Source: a virus (Duplodnaviria; Heunggongvirae; Uroviricota; Caudoviricetes). Taken from it: DNA of 7,764 nt. This document shows, piece by piece, positions 1-7,764 of the stretch (positions within the stretch are counted from its first letter, which is position 1; the number at the start of each line of letters is the position of its first letter). Under the pieces are notes generated by a model. The model did not search any database and had not been told where the DNA came from. It worked only from the letters and a program-made list of their open reading frames with translations. The translations under genes were made by a program, and so were the position numbers. The stretch is taken from the IMG/VR virus record IMGVR_UViG_2724679540_000005. The stretch is one strand, 5' to 3'.

Positions 1-506
1 CTCCTACAGCACCAAATCAGGTCTGGGTGGCGGACCTGACGTATGTTGCCACACAGGAGGGATGGTTGTACCTCGCTGGCATCAAAGATGTTTATACGTG
101 CGAAATTGTCGGCTACGCCATGGGAGAGCGCATGACAAAAGAGCTGACAGGTAAAGCCCTGTTTATGGCGCTCAGGAGCCAGCGCCCACCTGCCGGGCTA
201 ATCCACCACTCTGATCGAGGTTCACAGTACTGCGCATACGATTACCGGGTCATACAGGAGCAGTTTGGTCTGAAAACATCAATGTCGCGTAAAGGTAACT
301 GTTACGACAACGCTCCGATGGAAAGCTTCTGGGGAACGCTGAAAAATGAGAGCCTGAGCCACTATCGTTTTAATAACCGGGATGAAGCCATCTCAGTAAT
401 ACGGGAATACATTGAGATTTTCTACAATCGTCAGCGTCGTCACTCTCGTCTGGGGAATATCTCCCCGGCAGCCTTCAGGGAAAAATATCATCAGATGGCT
501 GCTTAA
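1..506 (+). CDS. IS3-family transposase OrfB (DDE integrase core), 5'-truncated by the window edge
   Basis: The ORF track's GTG at 27 is not the real start: the frame is open to the window edge and reads PTAPNQVWVADLTYV. Motifs ADLTYV, HHSDRGSQY and NAPMESFWGTLK match the D-D-E catalytic core of IS3-family OrfB. Stop is TAA at 504-506. Confidence 0.9.
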   Translation, partial: PTAPNQVWVADLTYVATQEGWLYLAGIKDVYTCEIVGYAMGERMTKELTGKALFMALRSQRPPAGLIHHSDRGSQYCAYDYRVIQEQFGLKTSMSRKGNCYDNAPMESFWGTLKNESLSHYRFNNRDEAISVIREYIEIFYNRQRRHSRLGNISPAAFREKYHQMAA

Positions 507-549
507 AAAAAGAACAAATGGTAGTGTCCGCTATTGCCAGTACACCTCA
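1..549 (+). mobile_element. IS3-family insertion sequence, partial copy (3' portion, cut by window edge), ending in the terminal ...CCTCA at 549
   Basis: Positions 1-549 are the exact reverse complement of 7216-7764 (checked at both termini and at the inner junction). The element ends with the 5'-TG...CA-3' termini typical of IS3-family inverted repeats. It encodes a DDE transposase fragment. Confidence 0.85.
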
Positions 550-795
550 CTGACATGCTAAAGCAAAAAATAGATGAATAAGTTGAGTTGTGCATATGTA
601 GCCTGACCGTCACAAAGTATATGGTGTCTGTACCAGTAAGATGATGGCCGGACTCTTTAAAAAAGAGCTGACCTGCACAATACAGGATGGACTTAGCAAT
701 GGCTGCTCCTGGCACAAAGCGGACAGTGATCACCGTTCTTACGACTACTTTCTGACTTCCTTCGTGACTTGCCCTAAGCATGTTGTAGTGCGATA

Positions 796-826
796 CTTGT
801 AATGACATTTGTAATTACAAGAGGTG
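796..826 (+). promoter_or_regulatory. relBE operator/promoter region (relO-like TTGTAAT repeats in a palindrome) plus relB ribosome-binding site
   Basis: CTTGTAATGACATTTGTAATTACAAG (796-821) has 8-bp inverted outer arms and two TTGTAAT direct repeats. GAGGTG at 821-826 sits 6 nt before the relB ATG at 833. This matches the autoregulated relBE operator architecture as recalled. Confidence 0.6.
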
Positions 827-832
827 TAAGAC

Positions 833-1072
833 ATGGGTAGCATTAACCTGCGTATTGACGATGAACTTAAAGCGCGTTCTTACGCCGCGCTTGAAAAAAT
901 GGGTGTAACTCCTTCTGAAGCGCTTCGTCTCATGCTCGAGTATATCGCTGACAATGAACGCTTGCCGTTCAAACAGACACTCCTGAGTGATGAAGATGCT
1001 GAACTTGTGGAGATAGTGAAAGAACGGCTTCGTAATCCTAAGCCAGTACGTGTGACGCTGGATGAACTCTGA
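833..1072 (+). CDS. relB: RelB antitoxin (RHH family), 79 aa
   Basis: Protein MGSINLRIDDELKARSYA...PKPVRVTLDEL is essentially E. coli RelB as recalled. Its TGA stop overlaps the relE ATG (TGATG), indicating translational coupling. Confidence 0.95.
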   Translation: MGSINLRIDDELKARSYAALEKMGVTPSEALRLMLEYIADNERLPFKQTLLSDEDAELVEIVKERLRNPKPVRVTLDEL

Positions 1073-1359
1073 TGGCGTATTTTCTGGATTTTGACGAGCG
1101 GGCACTAAAGGAATGGCGAAAGCTGGGCTCGACGGTACGTGAACAGTTGAAAAAGAAGCTGGTTGAAGTACTTGAGTCACCCCGGATTGAAGCAAACAAG
1201 CTCCGTGGTATGCCTGATTGTTACAAGATTAAGCTCCGGTCTTCAGGCTATCGCCTTGTATACCAGGTTATAGACGAGAAAGTTGTCGTTTTCGTGATTT
1301 CTGTTGGGAAAAGAGAACGCTCGGAAGTATATAGCGAGGCGGTCAAACGCATTCTCTGA
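1072..1359 (+). CDS. relE: RelE mRNA-interferase toxin, 95 aa
   Basis: Protein MAYFLDFDERALKEWRKLGSTVREQLKKKL...VISVGKRERSEVYSEAVKRIL matches E. coli RelE as recalled. It is coupled to relB. Confidence 0.95.
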   Translation: MAYFLDFDERALKEWRKLGSTVREQLKKKLVEVLESPRIEANKLRGMPDCYKIKLRSSGYRLVYQVIDEKVVVFVISVGKRERSEVYSEAVKRIL

Positions 1360-1430
1360 ACCAAAGCATGACATCTCTGTTTCGCACCGAAGGTGACACT
1401 TCTGCTTTGCGTTGACAGGAGAAGCAGGCT

Positions 1431-1586
1431 ATGAAGCAGCAAAAGGCGATGTTAATCGCCCTGATCGTCATCTGTTTAACCGTCATAGTGACGGCACTGG
1501 TAACGAGGAAAGACCTCTGCGAGGTACGAATCCGAACCGGCCAGACGGAGGTCGCTGTCTTCACAGCTTACGAACCTGAGGAGTAA
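1431..1586 (+). CDS. hokD: Hok-family small membrane toxin (HokD/RelF), 51 aa
   Basis: Hand-translated ORF MKQQKAMLIALIVICLTVIVTALVTRKDLCEVRIRTGQTEVAVFTAYEPEE, below the ORF-track length cutoff. It has the Hok signature (N-terminal TM helix, conserved C-terminal CEVRIRTGQTEVAVFTAYE) and sits downstream of relE as in the Qin prophage relBEF operon. Confidence 0.9.
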   Translation: MKQQKAMLIALIVICLTVIVTALVTRKDLCEVRIRTGQTEVAVFTAYEPEE

Positions 1587-1654
1587 GAGACCCGGCGAGT
1601 GAGAAATCCCTCGCCACCTCTGATGTGGCAGGCATCCTCAACGCACCCGCACTT

Positions 1655-1683
1655 AACCCGCTTCGGCGGGTTTTTGTTTTTAT
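1655..1683 (+). terminator. Rho-independent terminator closing the relBE-hokD operon
   Basis: GC stem AACCCGC-TTCG-GCGGGTT followed by TTTTTGTTTTTATTTT. Confidence 0.7.
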
Positions 1684-1803
1684 TTTCAACGCATTTGAAG
1701 TTCTGGATGGTGCCGGAATAGAATCAAAAATACTTAAGTAGCGCGCAGGGATAAAAGGGATGGACCCCGAACAGGGGAGTGCTACTTATCTGGAAGGATT
1801 CTG

Positions 1804-2054
1804 ATGATGAACATCGAAGAACTGCGTAAAATTTTTTGTGAAGATGGCCTCTATGCTGTGTGCGTTGAAAATGGAAATATTGTTAGTCATTACCGCATTG
1901 TGTGTTTGCAAAAAATGGGGCTGCGTTAATTAATTTTGTGGATGCCCGAGTGACGGACGGATTTATCTTGCGCGACGGTGAGTTTGTCACTTCATTACAG
2001 GCATTGAAAGAGACCGGAATAAAAGCTGGCTTTTCTGCTTTTTCAGAAGAATAA
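1804..2054 (+). pseudogene. rem: rem-like small prophage gene, split by an apparent 1-nt deletion in a homopolymeric A-tract
   Basis: ORF 1804-1929 (MMNIEELRKIFCEDGLYAVCVENGNIVSHYRIVCLQKMGLR*) ends prematurely. The 0-frame stays open from 1887 to TAA at 2052-2054 (...KNGAALINFVDARVTDGFILRDGEFVTSLQALKETGIKAGFSAFSEE). Adding one A to the A6 run at 1910-1915 restores a single 83-aa protein, the recalled length of Qin Rem. AGGA ribosome-binding site lies upstream of the ATG. Confidence 0.7.
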
Positions 2055-2120
2055 ACTCATCTACAATCTTGCGCGGGGCTGAACTCCCGCTGAGTAACAC
2101 CGTGCCACCGGAGAAAACCG

Positions 2121-2399
2121 ATGGCACGCAACGCAAAATATTACAATCATGATAATTCGACCGTTCTTGCCCACACGCACGAGCGGTATTCTCACGCATT
2201 TAAGTCAGACTGGTACCAGCATCCCTCATGCACTGAAGAACAGGCCGAATGGCTCATTCAGTGTTACCGCAGGCGCGGATGCGAGGTTAAAAAAGCCCTT
2301 AGCCTCGACTACCGTCACTGGATAATCTCCGTCAGGCTCCCTTACTCCGAACAGCCACCGCGTCCGTCCCGCACATTCCAGCAACGGATCTGGAGGTAA
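2121..2399 (+). CDS. Hypothetical small prophage protein, 92 aa, Cys/His/Trp-rich
   Basis: ORF with GGAG ribosome-binding site about 9 nt upstream of the ATG. Its TAA stop lies 1 nt before the downstream gene start, suggesting coupling. No family recognised. Confidence 0.5.
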   Translation: MARNAKYYNHDNSTVLAHTHERYSHAFKSDWYQHPSCTEEQAEWLIQCYRRRGCEVKKALSLDYRHWIISVRLPYSEQPPRPSRTFQQRIWR

Positions 2400-2400
2400 C

Positions 2401-3450
2401 GTGCGGGTATTACTTCGACCTGTTCTGGTTCCGGAACTCGGGCTGGTGGTCCTTAAGCCCGGTCGTGAATCCATGCCGGTATTCCACAATACCCGGTTAC
2501 TGGTGGAGCCGGAACCGAAAAGCATGCGTAATCTGCCGTCCGGGGTCGTTCCTGCCGTTCGCCAGCCGCTGGTGGAAGACAAAACATTGCTGCCGTTTTT
2601 CAGTAACGCACAGGTGATTCGTGCTGCTGGTGGTGCTGGTGCATTGTCTGACTGGCTGTTGCGCCATATTAAATCCTGCCAGTGGCCACACGGCGATTAT
2701 CATCACAGCGAAACCGTCATTCACCGTTATGGTACCGGCGCAATGGTGTTGTGCTGGCACTGCGACAACCAGTTGCGTGACCAGACATCCGAATCACTCG
2801 AGCAACTTGCTCATCAAAACCTGTCAGCATGGATGATTGACGTCATCGGTCACGCAATAAGCGGTACGCAGGAGCGTGAATTATCTCTAGCTGAATTATC
2901 CTGGTGGGCGGTCCGCAATCAGGTGGCGGACGCGCTACCGGAAGCGGTATTACGTCGTTCGCTGGGGTTGCGTGCGGAAAAAATCCGCTCAATGTACCGT
3001 GAAAGCGACATCGTACCGGGAGAGCAGACCGCCACCAGCATACTGAAACAGCGCACAAAAAATCTTGCGCCGCTGCCTCACGCCCACCAGCAACAGAACC
3101 CACAACAGGAAAAGACGGTGGTCAGCATTGCCGTTGATCCTGAGTCTCCGGAATCTTTCATGAAACGACCTAAACGTCGCAGCTGGGTTAACGAGAAATA
3201 CAAACGCTGGGTGAAGACACAGCCGTGTGCGTGTTGTGGTAAGCCAGCCGACGATCCCCATCACCTGATTGGTCATGGTCAGGGCGGAATGGGGACAAAA
3301 TCTCACGATATTTTCACGCTACCGCTGTGTCGGGAGCATCACAACGAGCTTCATGCGGATCCTCTGGCGTTCGAAGAAAAGCATGGTTCTCAGGTTGATT
3401 TAATTTTTCGTTTTCTTGATCACGCCTTTGCAACTGGCGTGCTTGGGTAA
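2401..3450 (+). CDS. ydfU: YdfU-like prophage protein (DUF968 family), 349 aa, with a C-terminal Cys/His-rich HNH-like motif
   Basis: GTG start at 2401 preceded by a perfect GGAGG (2392-2396). Length equals recalled Qin YdfU. C-terminus reads CACCGKPADDPHHLIGHGQGG...CREHHNELH. Position between rem and rusA/Q fits Qin-like gene order. Confidence 0.75.
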   Translation: MRVLLRPVLVPELGLVVLKPGRESMPVFHNTRLLVEPEPKSMRNLPSGVVPAVRQPLVEDKTLLPFFSNAQVIRAAGGAGALSDWLLRHIKSCQWPHGDYHHSETVIHRYGTGAMVLCWHCDNQLRDQTSESLEQLAHQNLSAWMIDVIGHAISGTQERELSLAELSWWAVRNQVADALPEAVLRRSLGLRAEKIRSMYRESDIVPGEQTATSILKQRTKNLAPLPHAHQQQNPQQEKTVVSIAVDPESPESFMKRPKRRSWVNEKYKRWVKTQPCACCGKPADDPHHLIGHGQGGMGTKSHDIFTLPLCREHHNELHADPLAFEEKHGSQVDLIFRFLDHAFATGVLG

Positions 3451-3462
3451 AAGAGGTGACTG

Positions 3463-3819
3463 ATGCTCATAGATTTGGTTTTACCTTACCCGCCGACGGT
3501 GAACACTTACTGGCGACGCCGTGGCAGCACATATTTTATCTCGGAGGAGGGAAAGCGTTATCGCCGGGCTGTGGCGCTTATTGTTCGCCAGCAGCGGCTG
3601 AAATTAAGCCTGTCCGGAAGGCTGGCGATAAAGGTGATTGCAGAGCCACCGGATAAGCGTCGTCGCGACCTGGACAATATCCTGAAAGCACCGCTGGATG
3701 CGCTGACGCATGCGGGAGTGTTAATGGACGATGAGCAGTTTGATGAAATCAATATCGTTCGTGGTCAGCCAGTATCTGGTGGACGTCTGGGGGTGAAGAT
3801 TTACCCCATAATGCATTAA
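3463..3819 (+). CDS. rusA: RusA-family Holliday-junction resolvase, 118 aa
   Basis: Protein has PPTVNTYWRRRG and RRRDLDN motifs and a length typical of RusA. AAGAGGTGA ribosome-binding site upstream. It lies immediately upstream of Q, the canonical lambdoid position. Confidence 0.85.
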   Translation: MLIDLVLPYPPTVNTYWRRRGSTYFISEEGKRYRRAVALIVRQQRLKLSLSGRLAIKVIAEPPDKRRRDLDNILKAPLDALTHAGVLMDDEQFDEINIVRGQPVSGGRLGVKIYPIMH

Positions 3820-3833
3820 GAGCAGGTCAAAAA

Positions 3834-4655
3834 ATGAAACTGGAAGATTTACCGAAATACTACTCCCCAAAATCCCCTGGCCTGACCGATGCATCGGCCT
3901 CAACGTCAAAAGATGCGCTGAGTATCACTGATGTGATGGCCGCGCAGGGCATGACACAGAATCGGGCTGAGATGGGTTTTTCTGCGTTCCTGGGGAAAAT
4001 GGGCATCAGTATGAATGACAGGGCGCGGGCAACAGAATTACTGGCAGATTATGCACTCAGTCGGTGCGATCGTGTGGCGGCGTTGAGAAAACTTCCGGCA
4101 GAAATAAAACCGGTAGTGATGCGCATTATGGCTTCGTACGCTTTTGAGGATTATGCCCGCAGCGCAGCGAGTAAAAAGCAGTGCCCTTGTTGCTATGGGG
4201 AAAAATTTATTGAAAGCATAGTTTTTACAAACAAGATCCAGTATCCGGATGGTAAGCCGCCGGTATGGGCAAAGTGCACGAAAGGTGTGTATCCGTCTTA
4301 CTGGGAAGAATGGAAAAAAGTCAGGGAGGTGGTAAAAGTTGCCTGTCCGGAGTGTGGCGGAAAGGGTGAGGTTTCCACCGCCTGTAAGGATTGCCGTGGG
4401 CGTGGTGTCGCCATTCATCGTGAAGAGTCGGTAAAACGTGGTATGCCTGTTATCAGAGACTGCCAGCGTTGTGGTGGTCGTGGCTATGAAAGACTACCAT
4501 CAACGGAGGCATTTAATGCTATATGCGAGGTGACAAACCAGATAACACGCGCGTCATGGGAAAAAACAGTTAAGAAATTTTATGATGCGCTGGTGACCCG
4601 GTTTGATATTGAAGAAGCATGGGCTGAGCGGCAGTTAAAAAAGGTAACTAGGTAA
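3834..4655 (+). CDS. Late-gene antiterminator Q (Q21/Q82-like), 273 aa, with four DnaJ-type CxxCxGxG zinc-finger repeats
   Basis: N-terminus MKLEDLPKYYSPKSP...TDVMAAQGM resembles prophage Q proteins as recalled. Repeats CPCCYGEK, CPECGGKG, CKDCRGRG, CQRCGGRG. The gene is followed directly by a late promoter, a terminator, tRNAs and lysis genes. Confidence 0.8.
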   Translation: MKLEDLPKYYSPKSPGLTDASASTSKDALSITDVMAAQGMTQNRAEMGFSAFLGKMGISMNDRARATELLADYALSRCDRVAALRKLPAEIKPVVMRIMASYAFEDYARSAASKKQCPCCYGEKFIESIVFTNKIQYPDGKPPVWAKCTKGVYPSYWEEWKKVREVVKVACPECGGKGEVSTACKDCRGRGVAIHREESVKRGMPVIRDCQRCGGRGYERLPSTEAFNAICEVTNQITRASWEKTVKKFYDALVTRFDIEEAWAERQLKKVTR

Positions 4656-4660
4656 CAAGG

Positions 4661-4700
4661 TTGATTTTTCCGGAATCTGTGGTAAATTCGTCATAATGAT
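4661..4700 (+). promoter_or_regulatory. PR'-like late promoter (with presumed Q-utilisation region)
   Basis: TTGATT (4661-4666), 16-nt spacer, TAAATT (4683-4688), immediately downstream of the Q stop. The position matches lambdoid PR'. Confidence 0.5.
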
Positions 4701-4737
4701 GGGCGTTTTATGCCTGACGTTAGAAGAGTTTCTACAA

Positions 4738-4761
4738 CCCGCCGCTGAGCGGGTTTTTTAT
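4738..4761 (+). terminator. tR'-like rho-independent terminator (end of the short 6S-type late leader transcript)
   Basis: CCCGC-CGCTGA-GCGGG stem-loop followed by TTTTTTATT, about 50-70 nt downstream of the putative PR'. Confidence 0.65.
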
Positions 4762-4798
4762 TGCGAAATTAATTACGGACCGTTATTATTCTGCTCCC

Positions 4799-4874
4799 GG
4801 CCCTTTAGCTCAGTGGTGAGAGCGAGCGACTCATAATCGCCAGGTCGCTGGTTCAAATCCAGCAAGGGCCACCA
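4799..4874 (+). tRNA. tRNA with CAU anticodon, ileX/ileZ-like (tRNA-Ile2, lysidine-dependent; automated tools would likely call tRNA-Met)
   Basis: 76 nt, GGCCCTT/AAGGGCC acceptor stem, anticodon loop CTCATAA, T-loop GGTTCAAATCC, 3' CCA encoded. Close to E. coli ileX as recalled. Confidence 0.9.
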
Positions 4875-4975
4875 TCACAAACCGCCATTAGCTTATCAGG
4901 AAGAGCAGACGACACGATAACAGGGTTGTTGGTGCGGGGGGCGGGTCCCCGATGGCGGTCCATTATCGGTATTCA

Positions 4976-5052
4976 GCGTTGTTAGCTCAGCCGGACAGAG
5001 CAATTGCCTTCTAAGCAATCGGTCACTGGTTCGAATCCAGTACAGCGCGCCA
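4976..5052 (+). tRNA. tRNA-Arg (anticodon UCU, argU/argN-like; reads rare AGA/AGG codons)
   Basis: 77 nt, acceptor GCGTTGT/ACAGCGC (one G-U pair), anticodon stem ATTGC/GCAAT with loop CTTCTAA, T-arm ACTGG-TTCGAAT-CCAGT, 3' GCCA. Confidence 0.9.
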
Positions 5053-5162
5053 TATTCATTCTTCCAGATTCCTTCCGGCAGAGCCTTATACTGAAATATA
5101 CCTGGCTCAGGATATTGTTGAAAATATTATATATTTGTCAAAAATAAAAGTTCTGTTAAGTA

Positions 5163-5516
5163 TTGATTGAGTATTTGTTATACGGTCTAATGGTTTTTTC
5201 AGCATTAAGTATTTATCATTCATATGGTGTGGGTAGAGTGAATATTGATGAGGCGTCGGGGTGTTTCATCCTTAGGCAGCGTATTGATATAGTCAATGCA
5301 GCACGAGCAAAGGCCTTCAGCCGTTTGACAGTTTTGTTCTGTACTCCTGATCGTCTTTCGGGAAGAGACGTTATTATTCTGAATAGTGATGCTATACAGA
5401 GGGTTTGCGATGAGTTCATGGTTGCTAATTCAGAATTATTTGCTCTTGTTCAGGAGTACAACAGAATAGCCAGGACCTGTGGTATGGATGAACTTCGGAT
5501 TACTCATCTGGGGTAG
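5163..5516 (+). CDS. Hypothetical protein, low-GC orphan ORF (117 aa from TTG at 5163; 108 aa if ATG 5190 is used)
   Basis: Open frame of 354 nt in an AT-rich segment. No convincing ribosome-binding site. No recognisable family. Could be a gene fragment. Confidence 0.35.
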   Translation: MIEYLLYGLMVFSALSIYHSYGVGRVNIDEASGCFILRQRIDIVNAARAKAFSRLTVLFCTPDRLSGRDVIILNSDAIQRVCDEFMVANSELFALVQEYNRIARTCGMDELRITHLG

Positions 5517-5839
5517 ATACATATCTGGATTATCACCTGTTACGGTAAAAAGTGATTGCTTACTGTTTTTGTGAATGGCATTGCAGCAGCCGGATAATGT
5601 CAGTGCCGGCTGACGGTGTGCTGGTGGCGGGTGTGGTGGTTGTTGCTTTCCCGTTGCTGAAAAAGAAAACGCCAGACTGTTAGCCGGGTATCAGTTAGCG
5701 GGAGAAATTTTTAAATACTTCACAATTCAGGCGGTTGACTGTTGTCTGGTTTGCGGGGAGTTTGTTAAAAGAAACTGGCATGGTGAATCCCCCTGTGCGG
5801 AGGGGCAATCAGCGAGTAGGTATATGGGATAATCGCGGA

Positions 5840-5944
5840 TTCAGGTGCTGGTACTGAATTCACCGGGAGGCACCCGGCACCATGCAATGGCACATAGCGC
5901 CACTCTCCAGCCCCTCTCCGGAGGGGCTGTTTATATTGATTTTG
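5840..5944 (+). ncRNA. Candidate small RNA: three consecutive hairpins ending in an intrinsic terminator
   Basis: Possible -10 GATAAT at 5828-5833. Hairpins ATTCAG/CTGAAT (5839-5859) and CCGGG/CCCGG (5863-5877). Terminator stem CAGCCCCTC-TCCG-GAGGGGCTG (5908-5929) followed by TTTATATTGATTTT. No ORF of 60 aa or more covers this region on either strand. Confidence 0.3.
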
Positions 5945-5963
5945 TCAGATGTGAGTAAACTCC

Positions 5964-6299
5964 TTATGGACTTTGTTGTTTTAGTCCATAAGGACATATT
6001 TGCAGAGTGCAACGGTTATTAAAGCATTCATTCAATACGTTATCTGTATTTGTAGGGCATTCCTGGCTGTTTTTGATTAAATTCCAGAATGTTTTATTGA
6101 ATGGTACTACGTTGTAAATGGTTACAGGTAGCACTTTGTTATTGAGCATGATGCCTGTGTGAGTCAGTGTAAATATACTTTCAGGAGGTAAGAAAGCATC
6201 CGATTGATACCAGATTATTAATTTTATTTTACTCCATATGACTGAAAAAGATATTCCGCATGATGGCTGGATAACTGTATCAATCACAATCCACTTCAT
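5964..6299 (-). CDS. Hypothetical protein, low-GC orphan ORF, 111 aa, Cys/Asn/Ile-rich
   Basis: ATG preceded by AAGGAAA ribosome-binding site (reverse complement of 6304-6311) with about 5-nt spacing. AT-rich promoter-like region upstream (6300-6540). No recognisable family. The last 10 codons lie inside a perfect 11-bp inverted repeat. Confidence 0.4.
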
Positions 6300-6558
6300 T
6301 TAGTTTCCTTGTTTATGCCTTGCTGGTGATGTTCTGAAAAGTATAAATGATATTTTTGAATTAAACCATAGAGCAGAATTATTTTTCTGATGTTGTTTAT
6401 TGTTTATTTAAATGCAGGGTGGTTTATATCTCGTCTTGTAGTTTATCCATGCATATCTGCTTGATAATCAGGTTTTTATTTAAGGTATGGTTTTGTGTTT
6501 TTTCTGTATTACATGTCAGGTATTTTAAAGAATTATTTTTCAGATGGTGGAAAGAACC

Positions 6559-6747
6559 ATGGCATTTAAACACTATGATGTTGTCAGGGCGGCGCCGCCG
6601 TCAGATCTTGCGGAAAAGCTGACACATAAACTGAAAGAGGGCTGGCAGCCGTTTGGTAGTCCGGTGGCCATAACCCCTTATACCCTGATGCAGGCGATTG
6701 CAGCAGAAGGTGATGTGGTGGTCAGTGGTGCAACTGAGCCGGAGTGA
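6559..6747 (+). CDS. Small phage protein resembling the DUF1737 family (62 aa from ATG 6559)
   Basis: GGTGGAAAG ribosome-binding site 5 nt before ATG 6559; the track's ATG 6544 has none. Sequence MAFKHYDVVRAAPPSDLAEKLTHKLKEGWQPFGSPVAI...LMQAI fits the recalled DUF1737 pattern. Such genes commonly sit next to lambdoid lysis genes. Confidence 0.5.
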   Translation: MAFKHYDVVRAAPPSDLAEKLTHKLKEGWQPFGSPVAITPYTLMQAIAAEGDVVVSGATEPE

Positions 6748-6989
6748 TACTACGTCATCGTACTGGCCCGGCATTCCAGGCCATAAAAGACAGTCTGGCA
6801 GTGGGACTAAATGCACTGACGCTGACGGATATTACCAAAAATGCAACGTATGGCGTTGAGATAGAAAGTCTGGTGCTGGAGATAAATGCACCGGCATCAT
6901 CATAAAAAGTGAGCCAGTCAAATGGAAGGTATCGTTAAACTCACCGGTAGTGTCAGTGGGTCGTCTGAGACGCTTGCATGAGTTATCAG

Positions 6990-7023
6990 AGCCATCAGTA
7001 GTTAACTGGTGGCTTTTTTATTG
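6990..7023 (+). terminator. Rho-independent terminator just upstream of the holin gene
   Basis: Stem AGCCATCAG / CTGGTGGCT (9 bp, one G-U pair), loop TAGTTAA, followed by TTTTTTATTGTTG. Confidence 0.55.
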
Positions 7024-7054
7024 TTGTCAGCTTCCGGATAACGGGAGACGGGGT

Positions 7055-7234
7055 ATGGACCAGATGGAAAAAATCACAACAGGTGTGTCATACACCACGT
7101 CAGCGGTGGGAACGGGCTACTGGTTCCTGCAGTTGCTGGACAGGTTTTCCCCGTCTCAGTGGGCGGCAATAGGCGTGCTGGGGAGTCTGCTGTTTGGGCT
7201 GCTGACATATCTGACTGAGGTGTACTGGCAATAG
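7055..7234 (+). pseudogene. S21-type holin/pinholin (EssD/EssQ family), truncated after about 53 codons by the IS insertion at 7215/7216
   Basis: GGGAGACGGGG ribosome-binding site then ATG 7055. [53 protein letters not shown] matches phage 21 S / EssQ as recalled, including a Met1/Met4 dual-start arrangement. The frame runs into IS sequence and stops at 7232-7234 (TEVYWQ*), so the cytoplasmic C-terminal tail is missing. Confidence 0.75.
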
Positions 7235-7764
7235 CGGACACTACCATTTGTTCTTTTTTTAAGCAGCCATCTGATGATATTTTTCCCTGAAGGCTGCCGG
7301 GGAGATATTCCCCAGACGAGAGTGACGACGCTGACGATTGTAGAAAATCTCAATGTATTCCCGTATTACTGAGATGGCTTCATCCCGGTTATTAAAACGA
7401 TAGTGGCTCAGGCTCTCATTTTTCAGCGTTCCCCAGAAGCTTTCCATCGGAGCGTTGTCGTAACAGTTACCTTTACGCGACATTGATGTTTTCAGACCAA
7501 ACTGCTCCTGTATGACCCGGTAATCGTATGCGCAGTACTGTGAACCTCGATCAGAGTGGTGGATTAGCCCGGCAGGTGGGCGCTGGCTCCTGAGCGCCAT
7601 AAACAGGGCTTTACCTGTCAGCTCTTTTGTCATGCGCTCTCCCATGGCGTAGCCGACAATTTCGCACGTATAAACATCTTTGATGCCAGCGAGGTACAAC
7701 CATCCCTCCTGTGTGGCAACATACGTCAGGTCCGCCACCCAGACCTGATTTGGTGCTGTAGGAG
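7216..7764 (-). mobile_element. IS3-family insertion sequence, second partial copy, inverted relative to the copy at 1-549
   Basis: Exact reverse complement of 1-549. The terminus TGAGGTG... begins at 7216 and interrupts the holin ORF. Confidence 0.85.
7259..7764 (-). CDS. IS3-family transposase OrfB (DDE core), 5'-truncated by the window edge
   Basis: Translation identical to the left-end copy (159-aa track ORF). Frame is open to the window edge. Confidence 0.9.
   Translation of the reverse strand, partial: PTAPNQVWVADLTYVATQEGWLYLAGIKDVYTCEIVGYAMGERMTKELTGKALFMALRSQRPPAGLIHHSDRGSQYCAYDYRVIQEQFGLKTSMSRKGNCYDNAPMESFWGTLKNESLSHYRFNNRDEAISVIREYIEIFYNRQRRHSRLGNISPAAFREKYHQMAA

Follow-up and report, generated by a model that had tools for sequence, protein, structure and literature searches.

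Inverted IS600 copies bracket an apparent Qin-like prophage remnant that occurs in both orientations in Shigella flexneri

An IMG/VR record assigned to the Caudoviricetes, 7,764 nt long and analyzed here in its entirety (the window), ends on both sides in the same sequence placed in opposite orientations. Do these ends mark a pair of insertion sequences (IS) across which the enclosed 6.7 kb can be inverted, a composite transposon that can move it, a regulatory switch, or an artefact of assembly? A sequence-only reading of the window had proposed inversion, mobilization as a composite unit, and repeat collapse.

Comparing the window directly with its own reverse complement, we found that positions 1-549 and 7216-7764 are perfect reverse complements with 0 mismatches, as had been proposed, and that base 550 is the first mismatch. 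A repeat search stretches the arms to 556 nt at 99% identity, which reflects chance matches at four of the seven following bases; the arm limits are 1-549 and 7216-7764, and a perfect inverted repeat of 549 bp cannot have arisen by chance. The earlier assignment to the IS3 family holds and can be narrowed to IS600. The arms match the Pfam profiles rve, rve_3, and rve_2 (DDE transposase of IS3 type) and the NCBIfam equivalog transpos_IS3 (201.6 bits against a cutoff of 160, profile positions 221-369 of 369), and they are identical at 549 of 549 positions to RefSeq elements annotated "IS3-like element IS600 family transposase". Within the 1,264-bp IS600 copies of related loci, they correspond to positions 716-1264; there the element carries either a 100-aa gene (orfA, HTH_Tnp_1) and a 272-aa gene (orfB, rve) or a single fused 385-aa call. 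IS600 ends in imperfect inverted repeats with TG...CA termini, IRL TGAGGTAGCCTGAG... and IRR (reverse complement) TGAGGTGTACTGGC..., of which IRR alone is present in the window. The arms share with the named element its sequence (100%), TG...CA termini, and DDE transposase, but the window keeps only the last 549 bp of each copy, the 5' 715 bp lying outside. A widespread truncated IS600 remnant starting at position 716 was considered as the reason for the window ends but found no support, the inspected E. coli copy being full-length. Since both transposase fragments read toward the interior and the element ends lie at 549 (...ACCTCA) and 7216 (TGAGGT...), IRR, the transposase-distal end, faces inward on both sides, in agreement with the earlier reading.

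Judged by gene order and sequence identity, the 6,666 bp between the arms are a defective remnant of a Qin-like lambdoid prophage, comprising its early-right and late-regulatory part from a truncated ydfV to a truncated holin gene (Table 1). The order and strand of ydfV-relB-relE-hokD-rem-(hypothetical)-ydfU-Q-...-holin are those of K-12 Qin (ydfV-relBE-hokD-rem-ydfU-quuQ...essQ), with which the window shares the relBE/hokD module, the DUF968 gene, the Q gene, and the position of the holin. Positions 548-1500 are 99.9% identical to K-12, as is relBE (833-1359), and from base 1417 rightward the window most closely matches other E. coli Qin-like prophages, at 98.5%. Where K-12 Qin has the cspF/cspB region, the window and these other prophages have rusA, two tRNAs, iraM, DUF1737, and a P21-type holin. 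In contrast to K-12 Qin, the window is cut by IS600 at both ends and has no lysis, tail, or immunity regions. Gene, tRNA, and profile searches agree that the interior holds the toxin-antitoxin module, Q, tRNAs, and accessory ("moron") locus described earlier. A 1-bp deletion close to 1909, particular to the lineage of the window, splits rem. Using uninterrupted E. coli genes as reference, the IS600 insertion point is AGCAACA/CTGACATGC in ydfV (K-12) and ATATCTGAC/TAACCTG in the intact holin gene, the slash marking the point. A 5-bp direct repeat, CTGAC (550-554 and 7211-7215), was rejected as a mark of transposition or excision, both pentamers being native to K-12 ydfV and the E. coli holin gene; having the same IS end on both sides is moreover a geometry unfit for a target duplication.

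Table 1. Positions of IS600 arms, genes, and RNAs in the window
Feature	Position	Strand	Remark
Left IS600 arm	1-549	+	IS600 positions 716-1264; IRR terminus ...GTACACCTCA ends at 549
orfB (transposase) C-terminal 159 aa, left arm	27-506	+	Reads toward interior
ydfV' ORF	503-808	-	Last ~15 native YdfV codons replaced via read-through into IS600 end
relB	833-1072	+	Type II toxin-antitoxin pair with relE
relE	1072-1359	+	Type II toxin-antitoxin pair with relB
hokD	1431-1586	+	Type I toxin, Hok/Gef family
rem	1804-2054	+	Split into 41-aa and 50-aa ORFs
ydfU-like DUF968 protein	2401-3450	+	
rusA Holliday-junction resolvase	3463-3819	+	
Q-type antitermination protein	3834-4655	+	PF03589
tRNA, anticodon CAT	4799-4874	+	Met by ARAGORN; E. 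coli homologue in RefSeq is tRNA-Ile
tRNA-Arg (TCT)	4976-5052	+	
Small DUF3927 protein	5552-5683	+	
STnc100 sRNA	5749-5938	+	Rfam RF02076, 132 bits against gathering score 47
iraM-like anti-adapter protein	5964-6299	-	"Moron" gene of the earlier reading
DUF1737 protein	6544-6747	+	
Class II holin (P21 S type)	7055-7234	+	Truncated after ~54 codons, fused to IS600 end
Right IS600 arm	7216-7764	-	IS600 positions 716-1264, inverted; IRR at 7216 points inward
Transposase C-terminal 159 aa, right arm	7738-7259	-	Reads toward interior

Searching for the two junctions between IS600 and the interior, we found both together in the closed, ~4.6-Mb chromosomes CP054892, CP026098 (S. flexneri serotype 3a), CP058589 (2b), CP026792 (4b), and CP004056; strain names for closed S. 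flexneri chromosomes are from PMC9455713 and PMC5429569. Serotype 3a strains include FDAARGOS_713 and FDAARGOS_74. The window interior differs from the closed serotype 3a chromosomes by 1-2 SNPs in 6,666 bp, and the window is a piece of an S. flexneri chromosome of a serotype 3a-like lineage. Neither the two junctions together nor the holin::IS600 junction alone occurs in any of 5,426 complete E. coli genomes. The right junction was found in two IMG/VR viral contigs distinct from the window (L001 and L002), and the left junction is absent from the viral and metagenome contigs searched. CP178302 (labelled E. coli ECMA0423, 4.44 Mb), the one match in the genome contigs scanned, was set aside, since with 93% identity and 76 gap openings it looks like a noisy assembly.

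Mapping the surroundings of the bracketed segment, we distinguished three arrangements. The order in arrangement A is ydfI-ydfJ'-IS600(full)-ydfV'...holin'-IS600(341-1264)-IS1-ydeP; in arrangement B it is ydeP-IS1-IS600(341-1264)-ydfV'...holin'-IS600(full)-ydfJ'-ydfI; and in arrangement C (L004, L013, and L014) both IS600 copies are full-length at 1,264 bp with intact outer ends. An IS1 insertion interrupts one copy in both A and B, so that its outer 340 bp including IRL are gone and the break lies at 341 (316 in L008). Among 25 contigs read at this locus, 15 have arrangement A, 7 have B, 2 have C, and 1 is unassigned (957 bp, too short); two further arrangement C genomes, L013 and L014, come from a separate search beyond these 25. 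A and B differ by an exact flip of the IS600-bracketed segment. Each outer 30-mer of A is the exact reverse complement of the opposite-side 30-mer of B, BLAST alignment of the two shows flanks of 3.6 kb, 1.7 kb, and 1.6 kb inverted around an 8.5-kb center that is collinear at 99.8%, and the breakpoints lie inside the IS600 repeats, which in closed genomes form an inverted pair sharing at least 924 bp at 99% identity or more. The proposal that recombination across the IS pair can invert the enclosed 6.7 kb is thus borne out by closed genomes, which hold both isomers with their flanks swapped and reverse-complemented. In interior SNPs, the arrangement A genome L008 falls outside a clade holding both A and B genomes, which suggests at least two inversion events under parsimony, an estimate from 13 sequences that 4 informative sites support and 1 site contradicts, and one that gene conversion with other lambdoid prophages could distort.

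Could the inverted ends instead be a product of assembly, with only one IS600 or none truly adjoining the segment and the symmetry produced by a collapsed repeat or by chimeric joining of unrelated loci? The window does have the symmetric form of a contig at which short-read assembly stopped in a collapsed repeat (6,666 + 2 x 549), a draft contig (L016) has a similar shape (6,666 + 2 x 61 bp), and the arms are perfectly identical, whereas in each of the three nearest closed genomes 2-3 sites within the terminal 549 bp distinguish the two IS600 copies (846 and 850 in CP054892, for example). Against this, many independently closed chromosomes have both junctions 6.67 kb apart with IS600 beyond each, one IS end cannot have two different neighbors without two copies, and the interior aligns collinearly with E. 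coli Qin-like prophages. In the closed serotype 3a chromosomes, IS600 is present at each junction as the full 1,264-bp element, so that two copies truly exist and the structure is no artefact of assembly; we consider an artefactual origin of the structure very improbable. The earlier caveat about repeat collapse thus survives in part: collapse of the IS sequence itself is likely, given the 2-3 site differences and the shape of the contig, but the possibility of only one IS copy is refuted by the closed chromosomes. Given these differences between copies in the three closest closed genomes, the arms probably owe their perfect identity to a short-read consensus over many IS600 copies, and the window is most likely an entire contig assembled from short reads. 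Of the structure as a whole, only the identity of the arms at base level may be artefactual.

A real IS600 pair might also cooperate through its outer IRL ends to mobilize the prophage fragment as one unit, and arrangement C, with both outer ends intact, and the occurrence of the IS600-segment-IS600 unit in three or four flanking contexts would fit this. Like transposons of the Tn10/Tn5 type, the locus has a passenger segment between two inverted copies of one IS; unlike them, it shows no flanking duplication and no sign of unit movement, and one copy is truncated in most genomes. The outer flanks of the unit are ATT and CTT in C and GGG and IS1 in A and B, and none of the three arrangements has a 3-bp target-site duplication, whether outside the unit, at any IS600 copy, or in the swapped form expected from inversion between two simple insertions. 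The IS1-truncated copy of A and B has no IRL, and the unit is always in the ydeP/ydfJ neighborhood. Moreover, the flanks switch independently, one side per change: B and C share the ydeP-side flank and differ in the holin-side flank alone, A is the exact flip of B, and the unit with both flanks new was not seen among A, B, and C. This flank pattern and the exact flip are signatures of recombination between IS copies and not of whole-unit transposition. IS3-family elements transpose through a circle formed from the two ends of one element, so that composite action is uncommon. The earlier suggestion of composite mobilization therefore finds no support here, and we rate it as slightly less probable still than an assembly artefact. 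Searches of viral contigs for the reciprocal junctions, in which the other half of ydfV or of the holin gene would lie beside IS600 IRL, as expected had each copy started out as a simple insertion with a 3-bp duplication, gave 0 matches for either. The least credible reading is that of a programmed switch, in which a site-specific recombinase would flip the segment to regulate genes in the manner of Pin/Gin/Hin or Fim. Both orientations do exist in nature, possibly through repeated events, and K-12 Qin encodes the invertase PinQ elsewhere in the element. However, the window lacks the pinQ-carrying region of Qin, and when its main interior ORFs were scanned against Pfam and NCBIfam, no recombinase or invertase turned up, the IS600 transposase being the sole DDE enzyme in these ORFs and the arms. 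Gene calls for the homologous interior in related closed genomes include neither. The repeats are IS copies of 0.9-1.26 kb instead of short recombinase sites, and with breakpoints inside the IS, no promoter-gene connection changes except that of the IS600 sequence itself.

Taken together, we regard it as highly probable that the locus is an IS600-bracketed S. flexneri remnant of a Qin-like prophage, the 6.7 kb of which is flipped by homologous recombination between the IS copies, with both products fixed in lineages. Two IS600 insertions, one in ydfV and one in the holin gene, would have cut off the two ends of the remnant, and the remaining prophage would have been lost or relocated through later IS-mediated deletions or rearrangements, which would also explain why neither IS600 has a target-site duplication. 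The absence of duplications is no argument against IS600 identity and is expected if the copies joined in deletions or rearrangements. This order of historical events is our reconstruction. The near-identical inverted IS600 sequence of at least 924 bp would then provide the substrate for ordinary homologous recombination, presumably by the host (RecA-type) pathway, and a crossover within the pair would flip the enclosed segment, each product becoming fixed in different S. flexneri lineages. As the window ends inside the IS copies, its own outer flanks, orientation, and IS600 completeness are presumably those of the near-identical closed genomes.

Less likely by far, the IS600 pair may flip the segment repeatedly, perhaps still in present S. 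flexneri populations, so that isolates or even cultures would be mixtures of isomers and orientation could affect expression; we give this little credence, if more than any of the rivals weighed above. If true, read-through from different neighbors could affect relBE, hokD, Q, iraM, and STnc100, and the locus would be a crude, recombination-driven form of structural phase variation and not a neutral scar.

IS-driven inversion of this kind is ordinary and well documented in Shigella. Inversions between S. flexneri genomes have been ascribed to IS elements, and of the six inversions that separate strains 301 and 8401, one was attributed to IS600 (PMC1550401). As in those cases, the locus described here combines inverted IS homology, breakpoints within the IS, an orientation that varies by strain, and the involvement of IS600; it differs in that the segment is small (6.7 kb) and has apparently flipped more than once. 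For the biology of IS elements or prophages, the 6.7-kb IS600-bracketed segment brings nothing new. Its form, however, is easily misread. On a 7.8-kb contig, phage genes flanked by inverted terminal repeats of 549 bp could pass for an entire small virus genome with ITRs or suggest a composite transposon; the window is neither. It is a chromosomal prophage scar on a contig whose two ends probably lie in a collapsed IS600 repeat. As closed genomes hold both isomers, the locus offers a clean and small example of inversion by an IS pair, and it could be used as a structural marker for S. flexneri lineages or to test the calling of structural variants from long reads.

When the window was compared with its own reverse complement, no mismatch occurred over the first 549 bases and divergence started at base 550. 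A repeat search gives 556 nt at 99%, but only because four of the seven bases past 549 match by chance; the arms themselves span 1-549 and 7216-7764. Each arm is 100% identical over its 549 bp to E. coli elements annotated as "IS3-like element IS600 family transposase," aligns with positions 716-1264 of the 1,264-bp IS600 taken from related loci, and encodes the C-terminal 159 residues of the DDE transposase (Pfam rve, rve_3, and rve_2), a fragment covering positions 221-369 of the 369-position NCBIfam profile for the IS3 transposase equivalog. The fragments in both arms point towards the interior, which together with the IS termini (...GTACACCTCA, ending at 549, and TGAGGTGTAC..., beginning at 7216) places IRR, the transposase-distal end, facing the interior on both sides. 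Thus, the perfect 549-bp inverted ends and inward-facing IRR described in the sequence-only reading are both upheld.

Relative to uninterrupted sequence, the insertion points lie between AGCAACA and CTGACATGC in ydfV and between ATATCTGAC and TAACCTG in the holin gene. The pentamer CTGAC forms a direct repeat at the two interior edges (550-554 and 7211-7215), but both copies are native in uninterrupted ydfV and holin, and we rejected it as a duplication and regard it as coincidence. The ydfV'-IS600 fusion ORF takes its last ~15 codons from the IS end and has 101 aa, equal to native K-12 YdfV, so that gene callers list an intact gene (573 blocks of the collection).

Features of the segment between and across the IS600 junctions
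Feature	Position	Strand	Remark
ydfV'	503-808	-	extends into IS end
relB	833-1072	+	
relE	1072-1359	+	
hokD	1431-1586	+	
rem	1804-2054	+	frameshifted
DUF968 protein	2401-3450	+	ydfU-like
rusA	3463-3819	+	
Q antiterminator	3834-4655	+	
tRNA, anticodon CAT	4799-4874	+	
tRNA-Arg (TCT)	4976-5052	+	
DUF3927 gene	5552-5683	+	small
STnc100 sRNA	5749-5938	+	Rfam, full-length, 132 bits vs gathering score 47
iraM-like anti-adapter gene	5964-6299	-	NCBIfam 162 bits
DUF1737 gene	6544-6747	+	
P21-type holin	7055-7234	+	cut after ~54 codons

The interior has the same gene order as the defective prophage Qin of E. coli K-12, which is 99.9% identical to window 548-1500, whereas 1417-7216 matches best (98.5%) to the Qin-like prophages found in other E. 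coli, which have rusA, the tRNA pair, and iraM. A mosaic boundary lies at ~1417: the sequence leftwards, including relBE, is K-12 Qin-like (99.9%), and the IMG/VR contig L002 and the best whole-interior E. coli matches share only 1417-7216, with other DNA to the left. Q is followed by the tRNA(CAT) and tRNA-Arg(TCT) pair and then by an accessory locus with the iraM-like gene as cargo, in which the STnc100 match sits between the DUF3927 and iraM-like genes. Stx phages carry stx in this layout, as cargo after Q and the tRNAs, where the window has the anti-adapter gene instead. The CAT tRNA is called Met by ARAGORN, and its homologue in E. coli 1EC213 is tRNA-Ile in RefSeq. A 1-bp deletion at ~1909 relative to genomes of arrangements A and B (described below), common to all serotype 3a-like sequences, splits rem into ORFs of 41 and 50 aa.

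Using two junction-spanning ORFs as exact-match probes, we found that many closed ~4.6-Mb chromosomes hold both junctions 6.67 kb apart with IS600 beyond each, as expected from the proposal that an IS pair brackets the segment. Among these chromosomes, published sources identify as S. flexneri those of M2901 (2b, CP058589), 61-4982 (4b, CP026792), and the serotype 3a strains FDAARGOS_74 (CP026098) and FDAARGOS_713 (CP054892) (PMC9455713), as well as 2003036 (CP004056; PMC5429569). The window interior differs from serotype 3a genomes at 1-2 of 6,666 bases and from the others at 19-24, and the 3a genomes have full-length IS600 at both sides; a single IS copy is thus refuted. Among 5,426 complete E. 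coli genomes, none had the pair of junctions, and the holin::IS600 junction did not occur in any of them. Of the species-representative genomes, only CP178302.1 (labelled E. coli ECMA0423, 4.44 Mb) has the ydfV::IS600 junction; its 93% alignment to the window contains 76 gap openings, a pattern suggesting that long reads from a Shigella-like strain were assembled without correction and deposited under E. coli.

The perfect identity of the arms is a separate matter. In closed genomes, the two IS600 copies are not quite identical over the terminal 549 bp: in the serotype 3a loci L013 and L014 they differ at two positions, 846 and 850 in both cases, and in a third, L004, at three. The common variant at those sites is present in both window arms. 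The window measures 6,666 + 2 x 549 and the draft contig L016 measures 6,666 + 2 x 61; related contigs indicate that a 5-10-kb contig is a common assembly outcome for this region. The window would then be a whole short-read contig whose ends extend through collapsed IS600 sequence as far as a shared branch point, and the identity of its arms would reflect a consensus rather than a measured value. We looked for a cause of the break at IS600 position 716 and found none. Gene conversion may have made the identity real, but assembly consensus is the probable source. The artefact suspected earlier therefore probably applies to the arm identity but not to the two-copy structure, which is real.

After placing all loci in window orientation, we found two arrangements distinguished solely by their flanking sequence. 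Arrangement A (L003, L008, L010, and L011) reads ydfI-ydfJ'-IS600(1-1264)-ydfV' on the left and holin'-IS600(341-1264)-IS1-ydeQ'-ydeP on the right, whereas arrangement B (L005, L006, and L007) reads ydeP-ydeQ'-IS1-IS600(341-1264)-ydfV' and holin'-IS600(1-1264)-ydfJ'-ydfI. Reverse-complementing the 30 bases just outside either IS in A yields exactly the 30 bases found on the opposite side in B. Pairwise BLAST of L011 and L006 gives a collinear central 8.5 kb (99.8%) with flanks of 3.6 kb and 1.7 + 1.6 kb inverted and exchanged. In both arrangements, the ydeP flank keeps the IS1-truncated outer part of IS600 and ydfJ' the complete one, as would be expected if the crossover fell in the 924 bp of IS600 common to both copies. 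The inversion predicted from the inverted IS copies thus occurs as natural isomers.

Among 25 contigs, 15 have arrangement A, 7 B, and 2 C, and one of 957 bp is too short to assign; two further genomes, L013 and L014, also have C. Arrangement C (serotype 3a, including L004) has the ydeP-side flank in common with B, and past the holin-side IS600 it has a further IS and a prophage unlike that of the other arrangements. Arrangement B is probably the older state, since ydfJ there lies to the late-gene side of Qin, as it does in K-12. The interior tree from 40 variable sites, a small data set with four sites in support and one in conflict, is (C, (L008, (B group, A group))); because L008 has arrangement A yet branches outside the B and A groups, parsimony provisionally gives at least two inversion events. 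L008, which branches apart in its interior SNP pattern, also has its IS1/IS600 junction (17640-17664 in window orientation) at IS600 position 316; the remaining A and B genomes all have it at 341. This difference suggests a separate IS1 event or a local change. The draft contig L015 (AMWM01000069.1), one SNP from the window, carries, outside its left IS600, 24 bp (1-24) of a fourth, distinct flank and stops at its right end (8879) at IS600 position 340, the IS1 insertion site in other genomes; this end may reflect branching of the assembly graph or an additional arrangement.

Homologous recombination between the long inverted IS600 repeats would flip the segment, and we infer this ordinary process as the simplest account of the inversion. 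A programmed switch is unlikely because the repeats are whole IS copies. Searching the main interior ORFs with Pfam and NCBIfam revealed no site-specific recombinase, and gene calls across the homologous interior in related genomes include none either. Movement of the segment and its IS600 pair as a composite transposon, also proposed earlier, found no support: no duplication flanks the unit, A and B each have one IS600 copy without its outer end, the flanks alter one side at a time, and the unit is always in the same chromosomal neighbourhood. None of the IS600 copies in A, B, or C has a surviving 3-bp duplication, nor do these arrangements show the pattern that an inversion between a pair of simple insertions would leave; the copies therefore underwent further deletions or exchanges, in keeping with the loss of the lysis, tail, and immunity regions of Qin.

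IS elements make up ~6% of the S. flexneri chromosome, and inversions between strains 301 and 8401 have been ascribed to IS629, IS1, IS4, ISSfl2, and IS600 (PMC1550401). Nothing about the window locus is categorically new: it is another case of IS-driven inversion in S. flexneri, and its flip is possibly one of the same 301/8401 events.
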